Assembly: GCA_051294905.1 (NCBI GenBank)
Contig: CM119372.1
Coordinates: 4,032,001-4,096,000, forward strand
Source: Botryllus schlosseri
Taxonomy: Eukaryota
Length of the DNA stretch: 64,000 bases
Direction of reading: 5' to 3'
In this document: piece by piece, positions 3,756-61,844 of the stretch
Layout of the letters: each line of letters begins with the position of its first letter
How positions within the stretch are numbered: position 1 is the stretch's first letter
The notes under the pieces: model-generated
Seen by the model: only the letters and a program-made list of their open reading frames with translations
What the model was told of the DNA's origin: nothing
Database searches by the model: none
Made by a program: the position numbers and the translations under genes

Positions 3756-4630
3756 TGGGATAGCATGGAGGGCTGGAGCATGACTTAGAAAGCCGTAAAG
3801 GCTATATCTGCACTTCCTTGTCCAGCGGCATATTCACATCATGCACTCATGGTATGCATATGCGCAGATCGTGTGTATGTGTATCATGAGTCGGTGTATA
3901 TGCCGCAAAACATCAAGGACAAAAATAAACTACGTCCTTCCTTCCTTCTTCCCACCGCCGAGCTTTATACAGTTCGAAGTTTACTATTCTTGACCCTTCC
4001 CACTACCGGTGACGTCGTGTTTTGTGATACGATTGTTGATATACAATGTTGTTTTTAATTATCCGCTATTTGCTGACGATTGCCCATGACGAGTGTCGAC
4101 ATTCGGGTTCACTTCAATATAATTGCCAGTATACTGGTGATCTGTTCGCATCGTTTAGTAGCATCGATTTAGAACAGCAATTCACTAACGACCTTCGGAA
4201 AGTAATCCGAGATTCCGAGGTTCATCGTGCTCACTGCTCGCTTTACGTAATGACAAGGTTCATGGTTTTCATTCAATGTCAATCCTATAAGGTCACAATC
4301 GGGGCACTTTCAGCTTTAAATGAATGTGGCAATGACGACTTTCAATCACTACCGTATTATGATGGGAATGGAACGCCGTCATAGCATAGCTTTAGCCATA
4401 GACAGCAAACAGCATATTGATGCCGAGCTGTGATTCACTTACTGATTCATGTTCTTGATATCATACTGCTGTTTTTTAGGCGTGAGATCAAAGGTAGAAA
4501 AGAGTTCGTTTACCGGTACCGATAAGTTCTCTGCCAGATTGGAATTGGTGGCAACGTCACGCGCAACTTTTCGTTCAACTATTGAACTAATTGTTCCATG
4601 CAACAAACCCTTCTGTGAGTGTCATGCTGG

Positions 4631-7335: not shown

Positions 7336-7458
7336 GTGTAGGCGTGCTCACAATTCTAAGGATTTTCGCTTTCTTAAGTGTTCACAAAATGATGAACAGA
7401 AACATTACACTTTCAGAATCTAGGTAATACTGCAGTGTAGTTTTTCCCCAAATTTGTG

Positions 7459-9918
7459 ATGTTCTCGGAAAAAGCTGTTACCCGTCTTTTCCCATCACTA
7501 GTAAAATATGGAGCTATATCCAGATCGTACAGCGCCGCGGCCTCTACCAATTTGAAAGAAGTTCTCACAAACATGATCCCGGAAAAGCAAAAAGAAATCA
7601 TGGAATTCAGGAAAGAATACGGAAGCGCCAAAGTTGGCGATGTCAACGTAGACATGGTCTACGGCGGTATGAGAGGTATCAAAGGTATGGTATGGGAAAC
7701 GTCTGTGTTAGACCCGGAAGAAGGTATTCGATTCAGAGGTTACAGCATTCCGGAATGCCAACAGCTTTTACCGAAAGCAGAAGGTGGTTCGGAACCTATA
7801 CCAGAAGCACTATTTTGGCTTCTAGTGACAGGTGAAGTACCAACAAAGGCACAAGCGGACGCGTTGAGTAAAGATTGGGCAAAAAGGGCTGATTTACCAC
7901 AACACGTTGTCAACTTATTAGATCAACTACCAAGCAATGTTCATCCAATGTCCCAACTAAGTGCCGCGATTACTGTTCTCAACACAGAGTCGAAATTCGC
8001 AAAGGCCTACTCTGAAGGAGTTAACAAGAAGTTATACTGGGAACTGGTGTACGAAGACGCAATGGACCTGATCGCTAAACTGCCACCAATCGCTGCCAAG
8101 ATTTACCGCAATTTGTACAGGGATGGCAGTCCCATAGGCACTATCGATGAAAACGCGGATTGGTCTCTCAACTTTTGTAGAATGCTTGGTTACGATAACC
8201 CCGGATTCATCGAGCTTATGCGTCTTTATTTGGTGATTCACTCTGATCACGAAGGAGGCAACGTCAGCGCGCATACTTCGCATCTCGTCGGCAGTGCGTT
8301 GAGTGACCCGTATTTGTCTGTGGCTGCGGCAATGAATGGACTCGCAGGACCTCTGCACGGTCTTGCAAATCAAGAAGTCTTGGTCTGGTTGACCGGTAAG
8401 TAATTTAGTCGATTGTAATCATTGTCTTCTTTAGATGATGTTTTGTGGAATAATCTACAAGCCTTTATCAGATTGTCGGACTCGCTAGATGTTTTCAAGC
8501 GTGAAATCAAAATCGTTTCATTTACTCGTGCTATGGCTGTGTTCATTAGCATTGTTCAAAAACAACTTTTTTTTGGGTAAAAGTATTAGCTGTGCTAATG
8601 AACGCCACACAACAAATTTGACTCAATTCCAACCTTTATTAAAAAATGATTTGAACAGCTTCTTGGAGGTACATATCTTCGTATATTCATATTGAAATGA
8701 ACCCGATTCAGCCGAAAATATTCAGGTTCATTTCAATTTGAATAAAAAAAAGAATTGAAAAAAAAACTTGAAATTGTTGAGCTGTCGAAAAAACGACGCA
8801 TAGCAATTTTGGCTCAATTCCAACTAGTGGAAGCAAAGTTATTGTTGTTGGATTTGAAATTATAGGCTAGTATTTACGGTGGTCAGTTCTAATCAGTAAT
8901 TAAAAAATTTTCCACCATGATTACTAGTATTTTCAGTCCACAATTTTGTACTCAAATAATTTAGATTCTACCGGTTGAAATCGGGCCAAATTTGCTATGC
9001 ACTGTTTTGTTGCAGACAACCTGATAATTTCATGCGGTTGCCAGCAAAATTTCAACAACAAAAATTATTTTGGGACAACCCTACCCTATTGATCGATCAT
9101 TCTTTCCCTACAGCAACGCAATCCCTCTTTTATACACAAATACATATACTTTTTTGATTTTATCACCCTTGTGTAAATTGCTGTATTCGTCGCTCTATAA
9201 ATTATAATATCAACTGATCGAATAATGTATTCATATTGAAATGAAAACAACTATTTTTTGCTGACACTTGTCAGGGGTAATTGTCAGCAACTAGTAAAGA
9301 AATAGAAATAACATTGCCCAATTCTCTGGTAGATGCTGATGAATACCCCTGACGAGTGTCAGCCGATTATATTCCGGTTTATTTCAACATGAATACAATA
9401 TCGAATTGTATATTGAAGTTCTGCACCGTCGAACAGCTCTTCAACTAACTGATTTTCATGCAGGTGTCGCAAAGGAGCTTGGCTCTGCCGAAGTGTCTGA
9501 TCAACAACTGCACGATTACATCTGGAGCACGCTGAAAAGCGGGCGGGTTGTGCCTGGTTACGGGCATGCCGTTCTCCGCAAAACAGACCCCCGCTACACT
9601 TGTCAAAGAGAATTCGCATTGAAGCACTTGCCGGATGACAAAATGTTTAAGCTCGTGGCACAAATTTACAAGATCGTTCCGGATATTCTGCTCGAGCAAG
9701 GAAAGGCCAAGAACCCGTGGCCGAATGTAGATGCACACAGCGGCGTTCTCTTGCAGCACTACGGCATGACCGAAATGAGTTACTACACCGTACTCTTTGG
9801 CGTCTCGAGAGCGCTCGGGTGTCTGTCTCAGTTGATTTGGAGCAGGGCGCTTGGTTTGCCGTTGGAAAGACCAAAATCTATGAGCACGAGCGGTCTGATG
9901 CAGCTTGTTAAAAAGTAA
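7459..9918 (+). CDS. CS: Mitochondrial citrate synthase, 463 aa, 2 exons: 7459-8395, 9464-9918
   Basis: Hallmark motifs [49 protein letters not shown] and [11 protein letters not shown]. Basic/Ser-rich N-terminus resembling a mitochondrial presequence. Phase-1 intron GTAAGT...CTAAC...CAG joins LVWLT-G-VAKELG in frame. Confidence 0.97.
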
Positions 9919-17104: not shown

Positions 17105-20100
17105 ATGACATCTGGATTTTCGCACGAAGCATGTCTGAAAAGCTTGAAGGTATGTTTGCTGAATAGATGTGGGGATCCTAATTTTCATTATAAATTCCGT
17201 TATCGTACATTGGCATTTTGCGAAGTAGAATAGGATTGATTTTTAGTGGCGAATACTTTTTTCGACCGTACTTATATCTGTTTATTACATCGAATTGTAC
17301 ATTGCCTGATGAAAGTAATAGAAGCGCTTTTCATGATTATAAACTGCTATATGTTGGATTCTGTTCAGAAAAACATTTCCTACATTTCTATCAAATTGTC
17401 ATAAGAGGTGATAAAAATAGTCATTGTTAGACATACTTAGCCTTAGTATAAGTTGAGCCAGTGGCGTAGACTGCGGGGGGAATCGGAAAACCCTCTACCC
17501 CTTTCCAAACTACACTCTACCCCCGTTTATAAGCTCTTATTATTGTCTCGGAGAGAGTCATCAGCTTATCCCTTTACCCTGAATGCATTCGCATATTTTT
17601 CATATTGTTGTCAATAGTTATCAATAGCGCACCGAAATGGTTTATGATTCGTTTCCCCTGCTGCAGTACTGTAGCTGGCATATGTTATGTGTGTACAAGT
17701 AGATGTTAACATGAGCGAGATTATCTGATCCTTGTTGCATTGGCATTTGTAGATAGATTTAACCATATTAATTAGAGCATTGTCTGTTTTCAAAACATCC
17801 CTGCTATCCCCCCATTTGTTTTATCTCACCTTCATTTTCTCTCGGCTGGCTACTTGCCTACTAGATTAGTATACATATATTTTGCGTACCGGTATAGCCC
17901 ATATATCTACCATTGTACATTTGATATAACAATGTATTTTTCACTGTAACCGGTCAATCTTTTCTGTGTCATTTCTACTTTCAATAACTTGTCACCTAAT
18001 TTTGTCGCTTGTCTTTTTATATTATCTTCTTTTACTTTTCATTCAGTGTACTGTACATGCCTCCTCTTTACATCGCCGAGGCCCAAGTGAGTGCCTGATT
18101 TCAACATAGTGTCCTATATGGTGTCGACACAGCCAAATCTCACGCCTCAGTGAAATTGTATCACGTCACAATTTCCATTTGGCTACAGGCAATTTGACGG
18201 TCATTTTTGACCGGCTTGCCGAGCATTAAATTTCGTAAAACGGGTATCAATCGAAAGCTGACTCTGCACTGATTACGAAAATATAAATTTTATTCCGCTC
18301 GTGGCCCTGGAACTCCCACAATCAGCCTCGAATTTTTCATTGTTATGGAGATTGGCATTGGTACGCAACAATGCTGTCTGGCGAAACGAGAGAGATCCTG
18401 ATGACGCAACAATGCTGTCTGGCGAAACGAGAGTGTAGCTCAAGAGAAAAAGGTCCAAAAAGCATTGTTGCGTCCTAATGCCAACCTCCATAACAATGAA
18501 AAATTCGAGGCTGATTGTGGGGGTTCCAGGGCCGCAAGCGGAATAAAATTTATATTTTCGTCATCAGTGCAGAGTCAGCTTTCGATTGATACCAGTTTTA
18601 TCAAATTTAATGCTCGGCAATCCGGTCAAAATTGACCGTCAAATTGCCTGTAGCCAAATGGAAATTGTGACGCGATACAATTTCACTGAGGCGTGAGATT
18701 TGCTTGTGTCGACACCATATAGGACACTATGATTTCAAAGACTGCTCCAAGTCGTTTTGAAACTTTCCAGTCTTTTCATCGTATTGCAATCTTGTGATGT
18801 ATAGATTTGATGAAATTGTTAATAGTATAGGCTAGTAAACTAAACTGAAGGCAGGCCGGATACATTTTCCCTACTATGGTATTGAAGGTTCAATCACAAT
18901 TCATTTTAGGCATCAGTCCAGAAAGATGTTGCCTCCCACAATGATGATTCCGTTATCGAATTCACGAATGCATATCAATCACTGCCGGGGTTGGACGCGG
19001 ACAAGCGCACCGCTGCCGATCAGTCCATCAAGAATCTCATTGCTGATGATATTCATCAAATTCTCAAAAGCGAACAAACGAACGTGGGCGTGGTGAAACG
19101 CGCAATCAGAATCATATCGTTTGCGGTGAATGTTGCGAAACACGGTGAGTAATAACGAGCAATTGCTCATTAATAAAATGGTTTTCGTGTAGGCTACTTT
19201 ATTAACTTGACCGTCACCAATCAGTGTTTAGGGTTAGGGTATTGTGGATTTGGCTTGGGATTGGGTTTAGGGTTACAGGGACTGGGACTGCGTATCAAAA
19301 AGTTGGGGTTGGAGATATGGCATCGTAAAATTCGTAAGGTAATATTTGGGTTGGGGGTTAGGGTTAGGTAGACTTGGACAACTGGAAGATTTTCCAGATT
19401 AGATTAGAATTGGAATTACTGAATTCGCAAAATCGTGGAAATTGAATTTAATACGGAATTGGAAAGGAATACAACAAAAATGAAGTTCAGTTCATATCAA
19501 ACCGTATTTCATGAGAATGACAAATGTCTCTGTCGTACTATACAGTTTTCCTGTAAATTTTCAGGAAAACCAGAATTTAGATTATAATTTAAATTGAAGC
19601 ATAGAAACTTTTCGTAAATAAGAATAAAATTAGATTACTGATATTTCACTCTAATTATTTTGATTAGACAACTAGAATTATCTAGTCATCCAAGTTTGGA
19701 GTCGGGGAAACGTAAAATTAGGGTTGCGGATGAGAGTAATGAATGCACCTACAATACATTAACCCTAAACCAATTATAAACGCCGTAAATTTTAACATGT
19801 TTATTGTTCATTGGTAGCCCTGATTGGTGATGGTCGATGTTGTTGTGAACAAAGTATATTAGACCCAATAAAATATCTTAATAATACGGTGTATCGTTAT
19901 GTTATGTTATCACAGGTATGTGCTCACCTAGTCTGCCATTCAGTCTGCTGGGGGACGTCTTAGACTGTTTGACTCTCGACCTTTGCGACCCCGTTTTCTG
20001 CTTCATCGAGGAGAGAGTGGCGACTTGGAAATCGACACAATTTTACACAGCCGGTAGGAATTTCTTATCTCGCTCTTGTGTTTACGTCAGGGTTGTAATG

Positions 20101-26100: not shown

Positions 26101-29100
26101 AACGAGGGGTGCCCCAGTTTCATCAAGGTCCGGGAGCCTGACAGCCAGAAAAAAGACGCCCCCGAAGAGGTCCAGTCACCCCCTGCCAAACGCCGTAAAA
26201 CTGCCGACGTCTCGAAACCGAAAAAAAGCACCATCGCGCAAGATTTCGTGTTGGGCAAGCCTCTAGGCATGGGAAGGTAAGTGATGTAATCACAGGTTGT
26301 CAGTAGGGTTGTTTAAAAATAACATTTTCTAGTTGGCAGATGTTGCACATCAAATTTGGCAATTCCAACCAACCTGTATATGTGTACATTGTGTAGTTAT
26401 TAGGGTCAAAAATTTTGGAATTTATTTCAAAAAATATGAATTTATTTTCAAATTTTTCTGGCTACCCCATAAAATTGTTACGTTGCCGTAAAACAATGCA
26501 CAACAAATTTGACTCATTTAGAACTTATTGGAGTAAACAATTTTTGAAAAAAATAGGGTTTACCGTACGGTGCGTAATTCGCTTCTACGGGTTGGAAGTG
26601 AGCCAATTCTGTTATGCATCGACTAAGACATAGGTGTTGTAGCAAGCCTGAAAAATCGTGTTTTCATTTCAGCCCCGAACTGACAAGGCTGTGGGAGCTG
26701 TGTCCCGACAATCTGGCCGCTTGCAAGTCAGAGAAAAGAAGCTTTCTACCCACTTTGGAAGGTTTCTTTGCCGAGGGCATCGAGCTGATGGATCCGAAGA
26801 ATATGGTGGAAGAAGAATACATGTCAGTCTACGTTTTTCACGTTTATTTTTTTGTTTGGTTGCTTGTCGATTTGGTCACTGCTACAGACACATACTTGAA
26901 GAGCTTCTTGGAGGTGCACAACTTCAATATACAATTGAAATGTATATTAATATTGAAACGAACCCGAATATTTTCGGCTGACACTCGTCAGGGGTAATCA
27001 TCAGTGGCTAGTAGAAAATTGGAAAAAACATTGTATATCAACAATGGTATCACCAAATATTACGTCACCGGCATGAAATTTTGAATAATTGGGGTGAACA
27101 GATGGCTTGAGCTCAATGTAGGCTACTATTTTTAATGGTACACAACTCCTTCTGTTGGCACAGACTACCTTGTCATATTTTGATTAAAGGCAGTTGTAGA
27201 ATTGTGCAAGCGATCATGCAATTAGCAACGCCTATTCGTCTTTGTTCGCAGGTCTTACAACGATCCAAACTTTCAATGGCGGGCGTTAAGGCTACTGTCG
27301 CAGAGAAGTCCCTTGTTCTTTGCAAGCCAACCTGCGCAAATGCAGTTCAAGGTCGTCTCTCAATACCTCAAGGGAATAATGAAGAAGCTGTCCGAAGAAT
27401 TCCCGGTACGTTACCGTCGATTCTAGTATTCGCATAAGATGCCACTAAGGCAGTGGTACCTAACCGAGGCTCCCCAACCAGTCCCAGGGGTTGGAGCGCC
27501 TGTCTAAAGTACGATTCATAGCCAAATAGCGACCGTTGCGTTGGCACAGCCAGCTGCACTGCATTAGGGTTGGGCACAATGATACTCTAATCTGAAGCGA
27601 GTATTCATTCTAACGGTTCGGGTCTAGTCGTGAGATGGTTTTTTTTCTAGTACTGAAATTATAAGTTCCCTGCCGTTAAGAGTTAATTAATCGACAAAAA
27701 TTATAGTTTCGATTGTATTTTCCTCTGCGGAAGGTTATAAACCTCAATTGGTCGTATCGCAGCATACGAAACATGCATCACAAAGCGACAATTCACCTTT
27801 AATGTGATATAAAACTGGCATGGGGTATTCTTTGTGGTGACATATCAGGTGCATATTTTAACTTCTCCCATCTTTAATACCGTTAAGACTATTGCGGGGC
27901 AAAATCGAGCGCCTGACTGATTTGAGAGTCACTCATAATGATATCATAACGGTATGAATGATGTGGGATGCTTAAATATGTTCCTTTTGTTCGACTGGAC
28001 AGAATATAATGCCATTTATACATCACATAGATTGGCTGATATTTTTCGATCATGCCTATTCAGGCGCGTAGATAAGGAGGAGGCATTGAAATGAAGGGAG
28101 GGGTTTCGATTTTTTTCAAATTTACTAATAGCATCAATTCATCAGGGTTAAGTACATGCGTAAATGACAATTATGCAATCTCCTCGTGTTGACGATTATA
28201 CACGTATGATAAGCTTGTCGACGAGTCCGGAAGTGCAGTTAATTAGCGAGTCCCTGATCTGTTGCGACCAAATACGCGCGCTTATCAATGTCCTAGTTTT
28301 TATGGAATATGTGCTGTAATGATGCCGATTTCAGGTGGTTCAAACCATCCCTCTTTTATAAAGGCTGTATCAGACGAGGCGATGCCGGCGATGTCGGCCG
28401 ATAATTTCTCTACCATCATGTGAGAGATCGTTGCACTTGATTAGTTTCAGAAGGCGTTGACCCGTTGCATTTAAACCTGCTCGGGGATGATTGACATCTG
28501 CGAATCGGTTTTTTGTTGTTGTACAGGTCAGGTACACTGTACTGTGCAACGTACATACTACCGTATTATGATCAGTGATGGGCGGATAGTGATTTCTGAG
28601 AATCCGAATCCATCCGACAGCTCAAAGCTCTGATGAGCAATCCTTCCGAATACCCATGCAAATCCGAAAAATCTTGTCCATAATCCAGAAAATCCGAACA
28701 GAATAAATATTCCGAAGAATCCCAATTGTGCAGCGGAGCTAGATACATTTAGGGCCTAGAGTTGGCTGGTTTATATTTGCTTGGACCTTTGACAAAACAA
28801 CTTTAGAGTGCTACCAGTCCTATAGCAAGGGGTACACTGTCCGTTTTGGTTGTCGAGCTGACGATTTTTTTCTTTCGACTTGAAGTCAAAAGTCACGTCT
28901 GGTCAAAATTATCCGGAAACAAAGTTACAACTAGCCGAAAATATTCGAAACTAATTCTGCAATATGGTTATGATGTCTGTCCAATGTGTTCATGCTGCAA
29001 TGTCTTGTCGAATGAAACCTTCTCTGAACCATGGTAGTATGGTATTTGTAAGGGTAGGTCAAAAAAGTTGAAGGTGGCACGAGTTTTGACTGTCATGATA

Positions 29101-33915: not shown

Positions 33916-36900
33916 TCAAAAGATAACTCCGCTTTCAATATGCAGAGAGTGAAGCTGGTTGGAAACTGACAATCCGTCGTAGACTCCAGGACCTTCATTA
34001 AAGATGTTTTCCTCATCCATATCGTCATCAGTTATTTCCCTGTGCACACGATAAATGAATATGTGAATCGCCGAGGTCACAAAATAGTCGGAGAGGTCAA
34101 AATTGTTTTTCACTCTCAGACTACAAAATGACAGTACAACGATACCGCAATTTTGAAGTCAGCAAATTTAGAGGCAAAATTGCCTCAGTCCATCCCATTT
34201 ATGCTCATGGAATGGGTTTTAACTTGGATGAAATGCATTGATAGACATATGATATTGAAGGTTTTGTAAGAGAGAGAGAGAATCTTTATTCGTATACATT
34301 ACATATCAACGTTACACTACAAAAATGTAACAGTGAAATGCGACATGCAAGGTAGACGGGAGGCTTGACATGACAAAGTCTTCAGAGCCGAGCCACCCAG
34401 GACAGGAGCAATTTTCACAGTTGATAACTAATGAACAAAAAAAAAAATTAACTAACGAACGAAAAGACAAATAAGACACAGTATCATGGACCAATTCGAA
34501 ATACAATGCAAATACAATTTAGCCGTAGTTAGAGATAAGGGAATGAAAACATTGTTTTTTAAATGCACAAGAGTCTAAATTGCGGAGATTAGGTGGCAGC
34601 TTGTTCCAGACATTGACACCAATAAAACTGATCGAATTTTGTACTAGACTGGTAGAGTGGTGTTGCACAGACAGAGACAAGTTAGAAGAAAATCTGGTAT
34701 GATGTTGGTGGGTGACCTATCGATCTCGCTTCCCATGACATGCCGCCCTATTTCTTGTCGCTTTCTTTTTCTATACTATCTTCTTTACTTTCATTCAGTG
34801 TGCATGTCGCCTCTTTACATTGCCTAGGCCAGTGGTTCCCAACCGGGGGGGAATTCCCCCCTTGGGGGGAATTTTGAAATTTTTAGGGGGGAATCTGGCT
34901 TAAATTATTTAGGGGAGATCTGGCTTTGGCATTGTATCGGAAGATACTCTGGGTTCACAAGGTTTTTAGATTTTTATGGTATGGAACTGTTAAGTAGAAA
35001 TTAGTTCTTTACAATTGTATATTTCTTTGGCGGATTTAAAGCTAGGTGTATGTTTAAATGCCTTCCCTATATATTACACCCCCTGATAAAGTGAGGCTCA
35101 CGAGACGATTTCGTTGGGTCCGGACAGCCTCTCGAACCAATTGCTACTAAGCAGGAAAACGTCAAGTCGAATTCAGCACAAGGTCGCTAGTGAAATTGTT
35201 CAACTTTTTAAGCCAACATATGAGCTAACGTGAAAAACATACCGTACCAAATTGATCGATTCAAATCAAGTCAATAGCAACCGGACTTGGTGATTTATTT
35301 TTCGTCAGCGGCTACCCGACCGGTCAAAATCAGTTGAAATTTGACTGTACTTTTCCAAAGTTTAGTGCGGTCTGTATTCGCCATAGTTCGGACATATCTG
35401 AATATGTTTGGCCATTAATTGCTCAGTCAGCAAATGGTTGCGTGTTAAAAAGTACATTTTTTTAGTCACAGGCAACTTTTTCATAGGGGGGAATTTTAGC
35501 TCAAATATTGGCCAAGGGGGGCACGAGACGAAAAAGGTTGGGAACCACTGGCCTAGGCCAAGGTGGGTGTCCGATTCCATAGACAACTCTTAGTCGCTTC
35601 AACATCTTCCTTTCTTTTCGTTGTATCGCATTTTTTGTGGTGTATTGAACTGATGAAATTGCTAATAAACCAATGATGATGATGATGATGGTATCTGAAG
35701 GTATCTTGAACAGATTATCAAAATATAGTGGCAGTTCACCCTGATGATAGCTATGCATAAATTTCATAACCTCAAATTTGAAAATGTCTTCCACTTTCAT
35801 TATTCCAACGCTTCGATACATGCTATTACAATTTTCATATCTAGATTTCCGACAGAGAATTCGTATGGCTCGGTTTTGCAAGACTTGCAATTTCTGCAGA
35901 TGTTTTTTTTGCAGCAGGTCCCCAAACTAGGATCCCATAAATGAGATAGCAGTGAATTAAGGCATAGTAGACTGATCTGAGAGTTTGATGAGGAATTAAA
36001 TTTTTAAGGCGATAGAGAGCCCCGACACCATGCGAGATTTTAGTTTTTATATTGTTGATATGATCAGACCATCCGAGTTTATCATCAATGATAATGCCAA
36101 GATATTTAACAGATTTATGTGTACCAAGACGTGCGTTATTTACTATAATTTCACTTCGATTCGCTTGAGTACGAAACACGAGAGTTTTGGTTTTGAAGGC
36201 ATTGAGCTGAAGTTGGTTAGATGCCATCCATTTTGACACTGTCGATAGCTTAGTGTTAATGTTGTGAAATGCATCAGATAAATTTTGAAGATTGAATAAT
36301 ATATTCCTATTGAATGAATCCGAATATTTTCGGCAGACGCTCGTCAGGGTATAGTAGAGAATTGAAAAGAAAATCGCATATCTACAATCATTTGGTGATA
36401 CGATTGTTGATATGTGATGTGATGCTATTGTCAATTATCTACTAGTTGCAGGTATTTTTTTACAGGAATATATCATTATTCAATTGAACATTGAAGTTCT
36501 GTGCATTCGTGATTCTCTTATTGTAAGATGAGGCCCATTCATGTAAAATGTTATTCATAAGATAAATGAAACAAGTTGGAGTGGTCTTTGAAATCAGACA
36601 CCCACCTTGGCCTAGGCGAAGTAGAGAAGCGACATGCGCACTGAATGAAAAGTAGAGCAATACAAAGCAAATACAAAAGGACAAGCGACAAAATGAGGTG
36701 GCATCAGACGGAATGCGAGACCGGTATGTCAGGTCGTGATCCGGTTAACTTGAGGGCTGACTAGACTGTCCAAATGTCCACGGACATCGGACATATGAGC
36801 ATGCGATACAAAAGCATGCAACATTCAAGCATGTGGGTTAACGGTAGGGTTGGGGTTAATTCTGGGGTTAGGATTTTTATAATAACACGCTCAACTGTCG

Positions 36901-39900: not shown

Positions 39901-42900
39901 TAATAATTTTCCTCATTTCAAAATGCCACAAGACTGCGATATAACAAAGAGATTGGAAGGTGTCCAAGCGACTCGGAGTTGTTTTTGAAATCGGACATCA
40001 TCCTAGGCCTAGGCCAGAGGTGGGCAATTATTTTGCTCGCGGGCCAAATGAAAAGCAGAAAATACGCTGGCGAGCCAAGTCAAAAATGTTAACTATATTC
40101 TGCGGCGTTATATTTGTATTTCTAAGAAGAAAGCAGTGAATTTCATTGTTTATACATGCTGCTCAATGGTAAACATGATCCACTGTAAACTCTTTTTAAC
40201 CCACATACATGTTTTTCTATTGAAACATTAAAATGTAGTTAGGATACTGCAAATATTATCTTGGTCGCTGCCTCCCGAGTAATGTGTAGCTTCCTGAAAT
40301 TCCTACTTGTTTGTGGAAACTAGCAATGCTTCCGAAATTCGCACTTCCTTAGCCGACTGATTGACTTGTTTTACGAATTAGGGATGTGGAAACGTATCGC
40401 ATAACAATATCTAAATGTGACAATGGCAATAAAGAAGGTTTGAACTGAACTGTATGGAAGCAGTGACATGTTGTGACTTTAATTGCTACGTAACACTTCC
40501 GTGCATTGGCTTTATTTTGAATCTGGATTACTCGTACGATTACGTAGGCTGACCAGTGTCAGCCGAAAATATTCAGGTTCATTTCAATATGAATAGACTA
40601 TTCAATCGTATATTGCGGTTCTGTACCTCTAAGAAGTTCTTCAAATGTGTAAGTTCATTACGTAATGTTACTTGAAGAGCTTCTTGGAGGTACAGAACTT
40701 CAATATACAATTCAATACTATATTCATATTGAAATGAGCCCGAATATTTTCGGCTGACACTCGTCAGGGGTAATTACTTGAGAGAAGAATGCTGATCACA
40801 GATATTGTTGCCGAATGAAAAAGCCACTTAAAGTCCACTTAATGTCTAGAGAATATCAATTTCCTCTCTTCAACGATTGCCTTATACAAATAAGCTGTTA
40901 GAGCATTTCAATTGTGTGAGAAAGTTAAGTTGATGGAATATATATCAAGTTGAGAGATCTGTAAATATTAGACTACTCAGAGATCACTTTCTACACATAA
41001 AGTAACCATTTTTGTAGATAAACTGAAACATGTTTCTCTAACGCTAGAGATACTCAAGGACTAGGAGTTGATCAATACACACGAGAGTGTTTCTACTTAC
41101 AATTATTTCCCCCAGTTTGTCTTGATTCATCGTGACGCAAGGGTATTGCTTGAACGGCATTTTAATGAACATATTCGCCTTTTTATTATGTTCCATCTCG
41201 TATGTTTCGTCTTCTCGCCACCTTGAGGAAGTACTGCTGACAGCCCTGCTGCTGGCAACTCGATTTTTAGCTGTCCATATGATTGATTTGGTAAGATGTG
41301 GTACGGTATTCCTGTGAAAGTATTGCTGCTTTTTATTGACAAATCCAACCATCCACAAATTCAATACCATACAATTGAATAGTATATTCATATTGAAATA
41401 AACCCGGATATTTTTGACAATAGTCAGGGGCAATCGTCAGCAATTGAAGAGAACTGGATATCCAGTTTGATATATAGCCTACGTCACTGCCAGACAGTCA
41501 TTATAACTGGGTTTATTAAAGTATAGTCCCCATAGTCACTTATTAGTACATTTATATCACATACCAGATTACGTTTGCGTAACTGATCTATGGTGAATAC
41601 AACAACTATGTCTCAATAAAAATACTTGGGAAACAATATCCGTTTATTTTAATAATTGTATATTGAAGTTATGTTCCTCCAAGAGTATATAAGAAACTAT
41701 ATCGATATAAATTTCAATCTATTAATCAAAATCTCAATCATGTTCAACTTTAACTGAGCTCATCAACTTTTTTACATCTATTTAGTTCCCAAATAACTCT
41801 CTCTTTCAAAATGTATTCTCGTCCATCGAATCATGTGGAATCAACTCCATCTTATATCACATCTCATCAAGTGCCCTTACAACGATTAAACGGTGTAACG
41901 ATACAAAAGATCAATCCAGCAGGCAGGAACATGTCACAATATTTATATCTGGATTCTTGAATAGACCATTACATGTATTTTTGGCATAATTGGCGTCACT
42001 GAATCACTGACTTTTGTTTCATTGTATCGAATACATTGCCCCTGCCACAAAATTTTGTGAAGCATCAATTGGTACCCAAAACAATTTACTAATTGCGATT
42101 TCTATTCATTAAATCATAACTTGTGTCACAGAATCACAGATCCTACATAATAATTATTTTATCATGTTCGTATCGGCGTTACAATATTTATGTACACAAT
42201 TGATACATTGTAATAATTATTTTATTGTGTTCATACCAGCATTACGATATTTATGTATTCAACAATTATGAGAAACATAATCCTATATATTGTTGGCGTA
42301 TTTAATAAAAGGTATCGAGTACCAGAACAACTTACGCTCTCTTTGGGTATATTTGCACTGTCGGGTCATCCAACAGACCCATCTCGCTTTCAGGCGCGGT
42401 TTGAGGGTGATTTTCATCAGGAGGGAACTCGTTTACGATGACGCCGGGTGATACCTGTGGAATAGTGAATAGCTGGATAAAGAAATTCGTTGCAGTAATG
42501 TTAATTGACTTGGGACTTTTCAAATTTGGAAAGTGCAGGAAAGCTTTGAAAATCTCCTTTTTGTTGGAATATTACATAGTAAAAGCTATAAAAACGAAGC
42601 CCAGTACTTTATTATGCACTGCGTATGCTATTTAAGTAGGGCTGAGCAAAATTGAGGACCTGAATGATTCGATTCCGAATAGAGTATTAGCCTAAAGCCT
42701 TCGAGTCGAGTATTTGAGCATCCCTTATTTAAACATCACAACAGTATGAATAATGTGGAAAGTTCAAATATGTACCTTTCATGCAGCTGCAAAGAATATA
42801 ATGCCAGCTCTATATCACATCTAAGTAAAAGCCATATATTCAATTACAAGTTAGTAATCGATGCATGCTTCCTTGTAGTGGTAAATCTCTGGGATTATAA

Positions 42901-55058: not shown

Positions 55059-55682
55059 TAGGGCTGTTCAAAAATAACTTTTTTCCCGGATTCCAGCCAT
55101 TCACTGATTAAATTGTCAGGTTACCCTAAAAAACGCTGCACACCAAATTTGGCTCGATTCTAACAAGTACAGGACTCCGCAGATCCAATTAAAATTTTCG
55201 ATTTTTTAATTTATTATGGAAAATTGAAAAAAAAAATTTCCTAATTTTTCTGCCAACCCCATTAGATTGTTGAGCTGTCTTCAAAGACGTTGCAAAACAA
55301 ATTTGAGTCAATTCCTACCAGTAGAAGCGGAGTTATGTGAGTTTTTCGTTGATAAATCGCGGATTATCCACCAATCAAGGATAATCCGAGAAATATCAAG
55401 GAAAAACTCCAATAACTCCGCTTCTACTGGTCGGAATTGACTCAAATTTGTTTTGCAACGTCTTTGAAGACAGCTCAAACAATTTCATGGGGTTGGCAGA
55501 AAAATTTGGAAATTTTTTTTTCAATTTTCCATAATAAATTAAAAATTTTAATTGGATCTGCGGAGTCCTATACTTGTTAGAATCGAACCAAATTTGGTGT
55601 GCAGCGTTTTTCAGGGTAACCTGATAATTTAATCAGTAAATGGCTGGAATCCGGGAAAAAAAGTTATTTTTGAACAGCCTTA
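55059..55682. mobile_element. Near-perfect palindromic hAT-type MITE (624 bp)
   Basis: Termini TAGGGCTGTTCAAAAATAAC...GTTATTTTTGAACAGCCTTA. 8-bp TSD GTGTACAC. Arms complementary to a centre near 55372. Fragments also at ~8550-9083 and ~26305-26560. Confidence 0.92.
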
Positions 55683-56995: not shown

Positions 56996-57831
56996 GGCGC
57001 TTCTTCGATATACGCCCCAGATCGAAACAGTGTTTCACATGTTACCAGCAAGTGTTTCCCATGAACACGATCAAATTTTATAAACGTCAAAATAAATTGT
57101 TTTTTTGCCTGTGGAGAGACGGATATTAGGGCTGGATGTGGTCAAAGTTGGGGTTAGGGGTAGGTGGATATTAGGGTTGGAGGTGGGTTAGGGTCAAAGT
57201 TAGTGTTAGGGTATCCCAAGATTATGGTCGGGAGAGTGTGGAATATCGTGTTCCGCACTCCAAACCTATTCTTGGGTTACCCTAACCCTAACACAGCTCT
57301 AACCCCAACCCAGCTCTAACCCTAACCCTAATATCCCCCTCTCCTCCAACCCTAATATCCCATTTCCTAACCCTAACACAGCTCTAACCCTAACTCTAAA
57401 CCCATCCCCTAACCCTAATATCCCCCTCTCCTCCAACCATAATATCCCCCTTTCCCAACCCTAATATCCATCATTCCTCGAACCCTAATATCCACCCTCC
57501 ACTCAACCTTAAAATCCTCCCTCCCCAGTCCTAATATCCCCCTCTCCTCCAACCATAATATCCCCCTCTCCTCCAACCATAATATCCCCCTTTCCCAACC
57601 CTAATATCCATCATTCCTCGAACCCTAATATCCACCCTCCACTCAACCTTAAAATCCTCCCTCCCCAGTCCTAATATCCCCCTCTCCTCCAACCATAATA
57701 TCCCCCTCCCACAACAAAGGCAAAAAACAATTTATTTTGACGTTTATAAAATTTCATCGTGTTCACGGGAAACATTTTCTGGTGTCATGGGGAACATGAT
57801 TTCAATCTGGGGCGTATATCGAAGAAGCGCC
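56996..57831. mobile_element. MITE with ~130-bp TIRs carrying telomere-like TTAGGG/CCCTAA arrays
   Basis: TIR GGCGCTTCTTCGATATACGCCCCAGAT. 8-bp TSD AAATGTTC at 56988-56995 and 57832-57839. Confidence 0.88.
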
Positions 57832-58072: not shown

Positions 58073-61000
58073 TGTTTCTTGGTATACATTTATTATGGCT
58101 TCCATGTGCCATCAACCAGAGATGAGATAAGAGATGAAGCGGTCAAGCACGAGTGATGCGGTCACGCACAGTTGGGTAAGGCATGACGTCATACCTTGCT
58201 ACTTTACAGGGAAGCATCATCATAATACATACAATAACCCACGTAACATCCCTTTCTCAAAACATCACAAAATAATAGAAAACGAAGCGAACCGGAATAG
58301 GATATAAATTACAGCAACGAATCAAGTTGTAACATAGTCTTGCAAGTATGCTGGTCGAATTACTGTACGGCTTGGCCTGCTGCTACTGGAACCAGATAAC
58401 GACCCATTAGTGTCGCTGTTCACTACTGCTGGTCTGGCAATCGAAATGTCGTCAAAGTCAAATGCAACATGCGGGCGAGTTACAGTAGTTCGAATAAACT
58501 TTCTGTTGCGTCGGTAGATCGTTCCATCTGTCGCCTTAACAATGTACGATCGATCATTCAGTTGCTTAATCACCACCGCTTCGAGCCACAAGCCATTTTC
58601 TGTCCTTTTGAATCGAACCTGTTGACCAGGACTCAACAGGGCGAGGTCTTTTGCACCACGATTGTAATACTTTGCCTGTTTTCTTTTCCGATCCATAAGC
58701 GATGGAATGACACCAGAAACAATTTTCGGCTCAAGCAGTTTAGTTGCTATTGGCAACAAGGTCTTGGTGCGTCTTCCAAATAGCCTCTGTGCTGGAGAGC
58801 CAGGAACAGTCTCGCCTGGAGTGTTCCTCCAATCCAACAGTACAATATTTATGTCTTTTTTGTCAGTTGTCGCTTTACGAAGTAACGATTTGAAGATTTT
58901 GACAGCTGATTCCGCCTTTCCATTCGATTGGCTGTGTCCTGGAGAGCTGGTCACATGTTCAAACTCATATTCCTTTGCAAATGCCTCGAAGTCATGAGCA
59001 GCATAGCATGGACCATTGTCAGTAATCAATTTCTCGCAGATTCCATGACGTGCCATATGTGATTTTAAGCGGCAAATAACTGCTGTAGAAGTCTGTGAGG
59101 TCAGTCGATCTACTTCAAAATAATCCGAGTAGTGATCAACTGTAATCAAATAATGTTGTCCGTCAAATTCACATAAATCGCTACTGATTATTTGCCAAGG
59201 ACGTCCTGGTACCGGATGTGAAATCAGACTTTCCTTCTGTTGGTTGGGTTGGTGTAAGCCACATGTGGGACAGCTTGATACGAAGTCCGTAATATCGTTA
59301 ACCATGTTGGGCCAATACAAACATTCACGAGCCCGGCGTACACAACCTTGAATTCCAACATGACTGGCATGAAGTCGCTTGAGAATAGTGCCTTTTATGG
59401 ACGACGGTATGACAATACGATCACCCTTCAGAACGATTTGATCCTGAAATGTCAACTCCTCTTTAAAACAGTAAAAATTTCGAATTGATTGGGGTACCAG
59501 CTTGGCTTCATTCGGCCACCCATGTTTTATAAAAGAGATTAACGTGTTCATGACAGAATCAGAGATTGTTGCTTGGCTGACCATGCCGAGCGTGGAGCTT
59601 GATACCGGTACATCATTCAACATGTCGATATGTTCAATCTGTTGAAAGATATCAAACACATCAGCAGTTTCTGCGTCTTTGGGTGACTTCGGAATGTACG
59701 CACGACTCAACGTATCCGCCACAAATAATTGTGATCCAGGCTTGTATATCACCTCGAAGTCATACTTTTGGAGCTGAAGTAACATGCGCTGTAACCGTTT
59801 TGGTGCATTAACCAGACTTTTCTTTGTGATCACTTCCAGAGGTTTGTGATCGCTTTCTACTGTTACAAATCTGCCATAGACATATAACTCAAATTTTTCC
59901 ATGGCAAAGAGAATAGCAAGCAATTCTTTTTCGATTTGCGCATAGTTGCACTCCGTTGTTGTCAACGCCCGTGAAGCATAGGCAACAGGGTGAGAGTTTT
60001 GCAATACACAGCATCCTAGCCCTTTTGAACTGGCATCACATTGCAGTACCATAGGTGCGTTTTTGTCGAAGTATTGTAAAACTGGCGCGTTGATCAAGGT
60101 TTGTTTTATTTTCTCAAAGCATGTCCCATGGAGGATTGGATCCCATATGAACGCGTTGTCTTTTTTTAGGAGTTCGCGGATGGGAGCGGTTATATCCGAA
60201 AGCTTAGGGGCAAAACGCTGCAGAAAATTCGTCATCGCTAAAATTCTCTGGACGCCCTGCTTATCCGTTGGAGGGGGCATTTTTATGATGCCTTCAATTT
60301 TGCTCGATGAGGGTTTTAGACCATCTTTTGAGATGGTATGGCCTAAGTAAGGCACTTCAGTCTGCAGATAGCGTAGTTTCGCTTTATTCAGTTTAATACC
60401 AGTTTGTTGACAGCGTTTCAACAGTTCAAAGAACTTTTTCTTATTGTCCATAGTCGCCTCTTCAACAGTGTCGCCCACACCATAAATCAAGATGTCATCC
60501 GCGACGGGCGTGATTCCCTCCAGGCCGTCCAGCGCTATCTTCAGTCTTCTCATGAACTCCTCCGGTGCTGGGCTGATCCCGAAAGGTAGTCGGAGCCATC
60601 TGTAACGACCATATGGAGTACCGAATGTAGTTAGATAACTACTAGTATCATCAAGTTCTACATGCCAAAATCCATTTTTTACATCACACAGTGTAAATAC
60701 TTTGGCATTGTGCATATATGGTAACACATCATCAACTGTCGGCATTGGATAGTTGTTGCGTTTTAGGGCTTTGTTCAGCGCCAGGGGATCCAGGCACAAG
60801 CGGATATCTCCAGATTGCTTTTTTACAGTGACCAGATTAGATATCCAGGGAGTATGGCAATCCACGGGAGCTATTATGTCAGCATCAACCAAACTATCAA
60901 TTTTCTCCTTCACTTGTGCTTCAAGTGCCAGGGGTATTTTGCGAACAGGCATCTGTACAGGATTGATAGTGTCATCAATTTCCAGATGAAGTTTACCCTC

Positions 61001-61844
61001 TAGCCGTCCCGTACCATTGAAAACATCCGAAAATTGTTCACATATTTGATCAAACTCCAGTGTAGCAAAATTGGCGAATTCAGGATCCTTCGCTGTAAGA
61101 GCTTGTACTGAAGGTTCCTCGATCATTATGTTTTCAAAATTGATCGTAATTAGTTTCATCCTTTGAGCATCGGCGGAACCAATGATGGAAGTGTTCGGCT
61201 TCTCAACCACTACAAATTCTAGCAAGTAGTTTTCACCATTCTTTTTATTGGTGATTTCCAACGTTGTTATTCCGAGAGGCCTTATCACTTCCTTATTATA
61301 TACAACCAGTCTCATAGAAGTAGGTTTCAAGTTGAGCATTTTTGTGTCACCAGTTACATTCAAGTAATCTCGCCATGAAAGAACATTTACGGTTGCGCCA
61401 CAATCAATTTGGAATTTTACATACATGTTAACCAGGTATAACAGAGCAAATATTTTCTTAACATAGGATTCCTCCGTAGCACTCACATGTTCAAACGAAA
61501 GAACTTCGTCATCCTCTTCTTCATCCGACTCAATGCGATCAGCTGATATCATCATCACAGTTGCCTGACATGCCACGGCAAAATGGTCTTTTCCGTTACA
61601 GCGTGAACAAGTTTTGCCGTTAGCCGGGCAATATCGCCGACCAAAAACATGCACCTTTCTACAAAACTTGTTTCTTGGTATACATTTATTATGGCTTCCA
61701 TGTGCCATCAACCAGAGATGAGATAAGAGATGAAGCGGTCAAGCACGAGTGATGCGGTCACGCACAGTTGGGTAAGGCATGACGTCATACCTTGCTACTT
61801 TACAGGGAAGCATCATCATAATACATACAATAACCCACGTAACA
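58073..61844 (-). mobile_element. Young Gypsy LTR retrotransposon lacking PBS and capsid gag
   Basis: Identical 176-bp LTRs at 58073-58248 and 61669-61844 with TG...CA ends. 5-bp TSD GACAG at 58068-58072 and 61845-61849. Polypurine tract GAGAAAGGGA next to the 3' LTR. Confidence 0.95.
58322..61708 (-). CDS. Gypsy polyprotein: CCHC knuckle, protease, RT, RNase H, integrase (~1128 aa)
   Basis: Uninterrupted ORF with CSRCNGKDHFAVAC, FQIDCGA, RLPFG...VADDILIYG, CDAS...NYAQIEKE...SDHKPL, HASH...CPTC and DLCEF/TDNG/NGKAE, in Gypsy domain order. Confidence 0.95.
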   Translation of the reverse strand: MAHGSHNKCIPRNKFCRKVHVFGRRYCPANGKTCSRCNGKDHFAVACQATVMMISADRIESDEEEDDEVLSFEHVSATEESYVKKIFALLYLVNMYVKFQIDCGATVNVLSWRDYLNVTGDTKMLNLKPTSMRLVVYNKEVIRPLGITTLEITNKKNGENYLLEFVVVEKPNTSIIGSADAQRMKLITINFENIMIEEPSVQALTAKDPEFANFATLEFDQICEQFSDVFNGTGRLEGKLHLEIDDTINPVQMPVRKIPLALEAQVKEKIDSLVDADIIAPVDCHTPWISNLVTVKKQSGDIRLCLDPLALNKALKRNNYPMPTVDDVLPYMHNAKVFTLCDVKNGFWHVELDDTSSYLTTFGTPYGRYRWLRLPFGISPAPEEFMRRLKIALDGLEGITPVADDILIYGVGDTVEEATMDNKKKFFELLKRCQQTGIKLNKAKLRYLQTEVPYLGHTISKDGLKPSSSKIEGIIKMPPPTDKQGVQRILAMTNFLQRFAPKLSDITAPIRELLKKDNAFIWDPILHGTCFEKIKQTLINAPVLQYFDKNAPMVLQCDASSKGLGCCVLQNSHPVAYASRALTTTECNYAQIEKELLAILFAMEKFELYVYGRFVTVESDHKPLEVITKKSLVNAPKRLQRMLLQLQKYDFEVIYKPGSQLFVADTLSRAYIPKSPKDAETADVFDIFQQIEHIDMLNDVPVSSSTLGMVSQATISDSVMNTLISFIKHGWPNEAKLVPQSIRNFYCFKEELTFQDQIVLKGDRIVIPSSIKGTILKRLHASHVGIQGCVRRARECLYWPNMVNDITDFVSSCPTCGLHQPNQQKESLISHPVPGRPWQIISSDLCEFDGQHYLITVDHYSDYFEVDRLTSQTSTAVICRLKSHMARHGICEKLITDNGPCYAAHDFEAFAKEYEFEHVTSSPGHSQSNGKAESAVKIFKSLLRKATTDKKDINIVLLDWRNTPGETVPGSPAQRLFGRRTKTLLPIATKLLEPKIVSGVIPSLMDRKRKQAKYYNRGAKDLALLSPGQQVRFKRTENGLWLEAVVIKQLNDRSYIVKATDGTIYRRNRKFIRTTVTRPHVAFDFDDISIARPAVVNSDTNGSLSGSSSSRPSRTVIRPAYLQDYVTT

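Follow-up and report, generated by a model that had tools for sequence, protein, structure and literature searches.

The minus strand of a Botryllus schlosseri contig carries, at positions 26962-27005 of the 64,000-nucleotide stretch of DNA analyzed here (the window), a sequence that reads as a type I hammerhead ribozyme with a 1-bp stem II and a palindromic stem III. Its loop II is complementary both to a heptamer just upstream of stem I and to the catalytic core itself, and a sequence-only reading of the locus had proposed either a pseudoknot or an on/off switch. Which of these pairings has been kept in the family that carries the motif, and what might it do?

Read 5' to 3' on the minus strand, the motif runs ACUGAUG, AUU, ACCC, CUGACGA, G, UGUCAGC, C, GAAA, UAU, U, C, GGGU. 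The heptamer ACUGAUG (27005-26999) is composed of the 5' strand of the pseudoknot, a hexamer recognized by covariation between subfamilies (27000..27005; ACUGAU here, GCUGAC in the family), and a conserved G immediately 3' of it (26999). The AUU linker and the 5' strand of stem I (ACCC, 26995-26992) were placed by sequence and alignment at 26992..26998, and the core CUGACGA, hammerhead positions 3-9, follows at 26985..26991. A single stem II pair, G10.1-C11.1, closes the 7-nt loop II UGUCAGC (26983-26977) within 26976..26984, and in the alignment loop nucleotides 2-7 constitute the 3' strand of the pseudoknot. GAAA and the palindromic stem III AAUAUU (26972-26967) occupy 26967..26975, the palindrome taking its first two letters from the final A of GAAA and the A after it. 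By the hammerhead consensus C17 is at 26966, with predicted cleavage between 26966 and 26965, and the 3' strand of stem I, GGGU, is at 26962..26965. The start-codon position lies 14 nt 3' of the cut site, at 26949..26951; comparison with the family shows AUG there, and AUU in this copy.

The motif and the subfamily rows share the core CUGANGA, GAAA and U16.1-H17 of type I hammerheads, and in an 11-row alignment stems I-III surround the core, stem I being open-ended, with covariation support. Rfam gave no match within the window and, for a young copy, no hammerhead match up to an E value of 10; the motif stays below the gathering score of the Rfam hammerhead families. The bare core pattern is a weak signal in the window (11 matches versus a mean of 5.5 by chance).

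The motif is part of a 5'-truncated, decayed copy of a Penelope-like element (PLE), consisting of the pLTR and the first ORF codons, which was delimited at 26888..27071 (minus strand) by blastn against other copies in the window. This copy is old: its best other genome copies are about 91-92% identical, AUG has become AUU, and the upstream segment has two changes. About ten related fragments occur in the window. By blastn and core inspection, they include an inverted pair of decayed copies with broken cores in both (9228-9316, minus; 9318-9447, plus) and a second inverted pair (40549..40774) in which the hexamer is missing from both copies and the core of the plus copy is broken. Further decayed copies are found at 4006..4120 (plus; heptamer intact, core and GAAA broken) and 41354..41440 (minus; heptamer intact, core broken), and a 12-13 nt deletion has taken out the heptamer of the copy at 36291..36388 (minus).

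Genome-wide, the pattern of core, loop and stem III has 8,059 exact matches, versus 3 for a reversed control. The loci around the best 30 matches have only the repeat in common; 5' truncation varies and inverted copies are frequent. The 44-nt motif of family A (subfamily labels A-M are our own) is present in 2,742 exact copies. Another 32 exact matches lack the 14 nt between two CUGACGA repeats, so that the hexamer spacing and stem I are lost (e.g. L516-L520), probably by slippage between direct repeats. Longer copies encode a protein with RT (PF00078), DKG and YVDD motifs and a C-terminal YVGRT endonuclease-type region (GIY-YIG-type), and this ORF stops 97-105 nt upstream of the core. The endonuclease was recognized by motif, a Pfam search of the family A protein having detected no GIY-YIG domain; protein-atlas neighbours of the element carry RVT_1, and 27% of the members of one cluster have GIY-YIG as well. 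Sister subfamilies form head-to-tail tandem units of ~2.7 kb with ORFs of 845-850 aa. The ORF AUG lies 14 nt after C17 in family A, where it opens a 520-aa frame (locus L032), and 9 and 19 nt after C17 in subfamilies B and C1, with ORFs of 845-850 aa; the range across subfamilies is 9-21 nt. A tandem architecture of RT plus endonuclease is of the Penelope-like type according to PMC8557442, and, measured against the same text, the protein sequence points to the Penelope/Poseidon clade because it has no zinc-finger linker. The ends of all 41 copies sampled lie 20-79 nt beyond the cut site, implying that the RNA that was copied had been left uncut or was re-joined at its 3' ribozyme. At L061/L062, a D1-type pLTR follows a C1-type pLTR after 110 nt, which suggests that one subfamily inserted at the end of the other.

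Elsewhere in the window, the open frame at 58322-61738 (minus; 1,138 aa) encodes RT, RNase H and integrase domains, is flanked by identical 176-nt repeats (58073-58248 and 61669-61844) and is a young LTR retrotransposon. A 320-aa open frame matching citrate synthase (PF00285) runs without introns over 7441-8403 (plus). Long near-perfect inverted repeats at 1116-2733, 18105-18731 and 55070-55670, with arms of 434, 277 and 139 nt, are likely MITEs or foldback elements. A degenerate tandem array of CCCTAA-like units (57320-57704) resembles interstitial telomere-type sequence, and an abundant GACTCGAGTC-rich repeat family is also present. A separate repeat with ~170-nt units and CUGGUC/GACCAG inverted words (L093:1320-1700; L078, L081, L094-L096, L100, L101) looks like a satellite or MITE. 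It was rejected as a hammerhead candidate, one unit having CUGAUGA...GAAA but no usable stem I or III.

Since the subfamilies descend from active elements, comparison between them is the right test of the upstream pairing. To this end, an alignment (A3) of 13 rows, one representative chosen by us per subfamily, was assembled, with ten rows from this genome (A, B, C1, C2, D1, D2, E1, E2, E3 and K) and three from metagenome contigs (M1, M2 and M3). The nine further genome subfamilies were obtained by pattern searches, and M1-M3 by an endonuclease search of metagenome contigs that yielded 80 loci, of which about 50 were inspected downstream of the endonuclease and gave three motif types, most of them M2. 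The subfamily proteins are 47-78% identical over the region compared.

The hexamer and loop II nucleotides 2-7 are paired in 77 of 78 cells of this alignment, with double-sided changes at six of six pairs. None of 500 shuffled controls matched the observed pairing, the shuffle taking no account of relatedness, and slid registers were 13-33% paired. Hexamer and loop read GCUGAC/GUCAGC in A, ACUAAC/GUUAGU in C1, ACUGGC/GCCAGU in D1, GCCGAC/GUUGGC in E1, UCUGAC/GUCAGA in M1 and M2, GGCUAG/CUAGCC in M3, and GUGCC/GGCAC in K, where pair 1 is a U.C mismatch. The changes fall on separate branches of the protein tree (E1 at pair 3, C1 at pair 4, D1 at pair 5, K at pairs 2 and 5, and M3 at pairs 2, 3, 4 and 6), and pair 1 occurs as G-C, A-U and U-A across it. 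This tree comprises 10 rows, C2, D2 and E3 being left out for want of a usable protein. The evidence for pairs 2 and 6 comes solely from K and M3; in all, three of the six positions (2, 6 and, in part, 5) depend on one or two lineages drawn from K, M3 and D1. Judged from the aligned sequences, the replacement of the whole helix in M3 is hard to account for without selection on pairing, and covariation across subfamilies strongly supports a 6-bp pseudoknot. The pairing of the heptamer with loop II, as first proposed, is thus borne out as a pseudoknot, but of six pairs and not seven: the G at 26999 is conserved in 12 of 13 rows, yet forms a G.U with loop nucleotide 1 in only 5 of 11 rows and is unpaired in 6, so that the seventh position is no conserved pair. 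In the copy at 26962-27005 the first pair is an A.C mismatch and five of the six pairs are left.

The surroundings of the helix are equally regular. The distance to the core is 6-8 nt from the heptamer and 7-9 nt from the hexamer throughout the subfamilies, and stem I has double-sided changes at four of four pairs (11 rows); the fixed spacing and the covariation of stem I together indicate that both helices are kept. Stem II is one invariant G-C (11 of 11 rows), with no extra base after A9 in 13 of 13 rows. The inner pair of stem III covaries, the palindrome being AAUAUU, AAGCUU or AACGUU according to subfamily, and subfamilies E3, K and M1 have U3-A8 core variants. With a Watson-Crick helix of at least 4 bp between the peripheries of stems I and II, the motif has the defining feature of pseudoknot hammerheads. 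Two subfamilies have peculiarities of their own: in most M2 copies seen (L255, L258 and related metagenome loci) the core is UUGAAGA, with a U3.G8 wobble in place of C3-G8 or U3-A8, and family K, with about a thousand copies (L507, L511), combines a U3-A8 core with a 7-nt stem III near-palindrome, AAGUCUU, that has a central U.

Other explanations of the upstream segment were considered. The heptamer had been said usually to read as a second CUGANGA; it does so in six of the 13 rows (A, B, E2, E3, M1 and M2) and is absent as such from seven, so that in this set of sequences the second CUGANGA appears as a lineage-specific trait. An upstream CUGACGA acting as a second catalytic core was rejected for want of a stem I partner and because the same 7 of 13 rows do not have it. 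Family A has a pyrimidine tract and AG that might mark an intron end just before the heptamer; the other subfamilies have no such AG, and no matching joint was found among the joints listed. A splice branch point in the heptamer was likewise rejected, its A being lost, with compensation, in D1 and K. CpG decay is not supported as the origin of the GCUGAUG and GCUGACA variants, as CpG sites had changed at a frequency of 0.045 compared with 0.050 for other flank sites.

The covariation between subfamilies has no counterpart among individual copies. The heptamers reported by the sequence-only reading for the copies at 4070, 9227, 9318 and 41435 are present as stated, and their pairing-keeping variants had been offered as evidence; this argument falls, since these copies, four of the five cited, have damaged catalytic cores. 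A sample of family A copies was taken as the first listed places on contig 1, disregarding the heptamer (64 examined, 3 truncated there dropped, 61 kept). Exact copies made up 34 of the 61, and of the eight hexamer substitutions in the sample none was compensated and one keeps a wobble. Inserted copies simply decay without compensation.

Such decay is also what would be expected if the complementarity had arisen by chance in a repeat, for instance through an old inversion, with no selected RNA structure. Moreover, two of 164 chance core matches in viral and prokaryotic contigs attain 6-bp upstream pairing. On the other hand, none of the 164 combines it with a stem I of at least 3 bp, and the double-sided changes at six of six pairs, on separate branches and among elements whose proteins share only 52-78% identity, largely refute this explanation, which we regard as very improbable. 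The core-pattern matches in the viral and prokaryotic collections behave as chance, and no PLE relatives were found in viral contigs. In the genome, patterns with shorter loops (3-6 nt) or a longer stem II gave counts within ~2-fold of controls, subfamilies with 8-nt loops being the exception.

The competing fold, a CUGAC-GAGU-GUCAG hairpin between loop II and the core, is indeed possible, as had been claimed, with a calculated energy of -5.4 kcal/mol in this copy. Local core hairpins of -4 kcal/mol or stronger are calculated for four of 13 subfamilies (A, -5.4; B, -6.3; C2, -5.1; D2, -4.3), intermediate ones for M1 (-3.7), C1 (-2.9), D1 (-2.4) and E2 (-2.2), and the value is -0.5 to 0 kcal/mol in five (E1, E3, K, M2 and M3). 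In every one of the 13 subfamilies the duplex of hexamer and loop exceeds that of core and loop in stability by 3.0 kcal/mol or more. In the decayed copy the order is reversed (hexamer:loop, -5.3; core:loop, -6.6 kcal/mol), and the inactive hairpin is its predicted fold, with a modeled probability of 0.98. Nested-only folding of family A gave 0.43 for the pseudoknot helix versus 0.49 for the core hairpin, and B and M1 were mostly in the core hairpin (0.89 and 0.90). This model cannot combine stem I with the pseudoknot, and the active fold is therefore understated. The folding also predicts a second inactive hairpin, one that spans GAAA and the cut site. The earlier suggestion that the upstream segment frees the core survives as a thermodynamic side effect in family A, where the nested-only model puts the core hairpin at 0.49 with the hexamer and 0.90 without it.

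Could the two folds constitute a switch, in which a selected off state, the hairpin of loop II and core, spares uncut RNA for reverse transcription and hexamer pairing gives the on state? They are mutually exclusive and nearly equal in the most abundant family, and the core-hairpin pairing is kept in 54 of 65 cells. Attenuation could be useful, given that all 41 copies pass the cut site and that in a lizard PLE it was mainly unprocessed RNA that served for insertion (PMC11167929). The 54 of 65 cells are, however, no better than shuffled columns; as the invariant core cannot covary this comparison is a weak test, and the energies are a better one. By that measure the five subfamilies named above have hairpins no stronger than -0.5 kcal/mol. 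One of these is K, which accounts for most of the matches listed for a pattern with 1,321 matches; being large and young and having no stable hairpin, it shows that a successful family dispenses with it. No trigger was identified, the hexamer is always transcribed ahead of the core, and the short stem III by itself already attenuates monomers. The two exclusive folds are thus not both conserved across the 13 subfamilies. The complementarity of loop and core exists because the helix strand CUGAC, probably ancestral and kept in A, B, C2, D2, E2, E3, M1 and M2, resembles the core. From the modeled energies, the loop-core pairing appears to be a misfold that the pseudoknot out-competes and no conserved regulatory state; the evidence does not support an on/off switch as a conserved trait, and we hold a selected switch to be unlikely.

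For the lineages that keep CUGAC, which include the dominant family, a further and equally doubtful possibility is a ribozyme with a decoy core. Loop II would pick either the real core (off, giving an uncut insertion template) or the decoy (on, giving a cut 5'-OH leader 9-21 nt before the AUG, and a message), and folding, dimerization or the PLE protein would split the transcripts between translation and retrotransposition. If true, this would provide a testable answer to the question of what PLE hammerheads are for.

The upstream helix might also be real and yet inhibitory, as part of a long hairpin that cages the core, or might be a pLTR mark recognized by the PLE protein. In 7 of the 12 RNAs folded with the nested-only model it forms by displacing stem I, and its strand is conserved in sequence more than stem I. 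One PLE hammerhead cleaved only in the presence of its protein (PMC11167929), and a satellite-RNA hammerhead attenuated by an alternative tertiary structure is cited in PMC6155905. These explanations seem to us improbable, as the single stem II pair leaves no other route to an active junction, the spacing after the heptamer is fixed at 6-8 nt, and stem I covaries too.

We consider it probable that the locus holds a decayed type I hammerhead of a Penelope-like pLTR in which the covarying upstream pseudoknot stands in for stem II. In this clade stem II has been reduced to the single G10.1-C11.1 pair, on which the hexamer, paired with loop II, most probably stacks as a substitute stem II, a role that we infer from hammerhead structure and PMC3088659. 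Tethered just outside stem I, the pseudoknot would bring stems I and II side by side, a task that in fast hammerheads falls to the contact between loops I and II. The 6-nt palindrome of stem III makes it most likely that activity depends on a partner: stem III would be completed by a second copy, in a dimer or from tandem pLTRs, or with protein help (PMC4209133 and PMC6765202). Cleavage after C17 would leave an RNA with a 5'-OH end 9-21 nt before the ORF AUG, and a tandem transcript would be cut into unit RNAs that begin a few bases before the AUG. A role of the ribozyme in translation is plausible by analogy, given that viral 5' UTR type I hammerheads can promote translation (PMC13725137). 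Public single-cell RNA reads were found on both pLTR strands; 71% continue into unlike sequence and there is no pile-up of ends, these data being unsuited to show cleavage.

Lünse, Weinberg and Breaker (2017) reportedly noted that, in the majority of hammerheads known before, bases preceding stem I make a pseudoknot or some other contact with loop II. Cervera and De la Pena (2014; PMC4209133) described minimal PLE hammerheads that share with the present motif a place in the pLTR of an element with RT and GIY-YIG, type I topology, a short stem I, a short palindromic stem III, G10.1-C11.1, U3-A8 variants and thousands of truncated or inverted copies. In contrast, 56 of 56 motifs in Fig. S3 of that paper have a stem II of at least 3 bp, usually with an extra base after A9, whereas here stem II is 1 bp and the extra base is absent. 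According to a 2017 review (PMC6155905), PLE hammerheads are usually devoid of tertiary contacts, whereas a pseudoknot covaries here. Pseudoknot hammerheads in which, as here, a Watson-Crick pseudoknot joins the peripheries of stems I and II were described by Perreault et al. (2011; PMC3088659). That paper places pseudoknots in all three hammerhead types and includes phage hammerheads with a 1-bp stem II; in a ribozyme with a 1-bp stem II, shortening of the 6-bp pseudoknot caused a 20- to over 100-fold loss of activity, and compensation rescued it. The 1-bp example tested there is a type II metagenome ribozyme, whereas the present motif is type I, belongs to an animal retrotransposon, and has a dimer-type stem III alongside the pseudoknot, the upstream strand being 5' of stem I.

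Short-stem-III hammerheads (Lünse, Weinberg and Breaker 2017) are PLE-associated and dimer-cleaving according to PMC6765202, resembling the present motif. In Anolis, the hammerhead of Poseidon PAc (Frangieh et al. 2024; PMC11167929) belongs to a Penelope/Poseidon-type element, adjoins the start codon and has copies that extend past the cut site, again as here; its AUG is 26 nt upstream of the cut site, whereas here the AUG is 9-21 nt downstream. The word pseudoknot is absent from that paper. Literature word searches returned no paper describing this design in PLEs, and the sequence-only reading was right that the arrangement differs from the minimal PLE hammerheads described in PMC4209133 and PMC6155905. 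By sequence comparison, a pseudoknotted hammerhead with a 1-bp stem II thus appears to be new for PLEs among described motifs, pseudoknots and a 1-bp stem II being known from phage hammerheads; the Lünse 2017 alignments may already include it, and a 2026 bioRxiv study of animal retrozymes could also bear on its novelty.

PLE hammerheads have been described as weak, with a long stem II and free of contacts, and this clade has the opposite design. In phage hammerheads the combination of a 1-bp stem II with a pseudoknot gives fast cleavage (PMC3088659). Neither Rfam nor descriptors that require a stem II of several pairs pick up the design, yet a single genome contains more than 8,000 copies. Natural variation between subfamilies in core complementarity (A with, K without), together with the 9-21 nt from cut site to AUG, offers ready-made tests of the efficiency of PLE ribozymes and of any role of cutting in translation.
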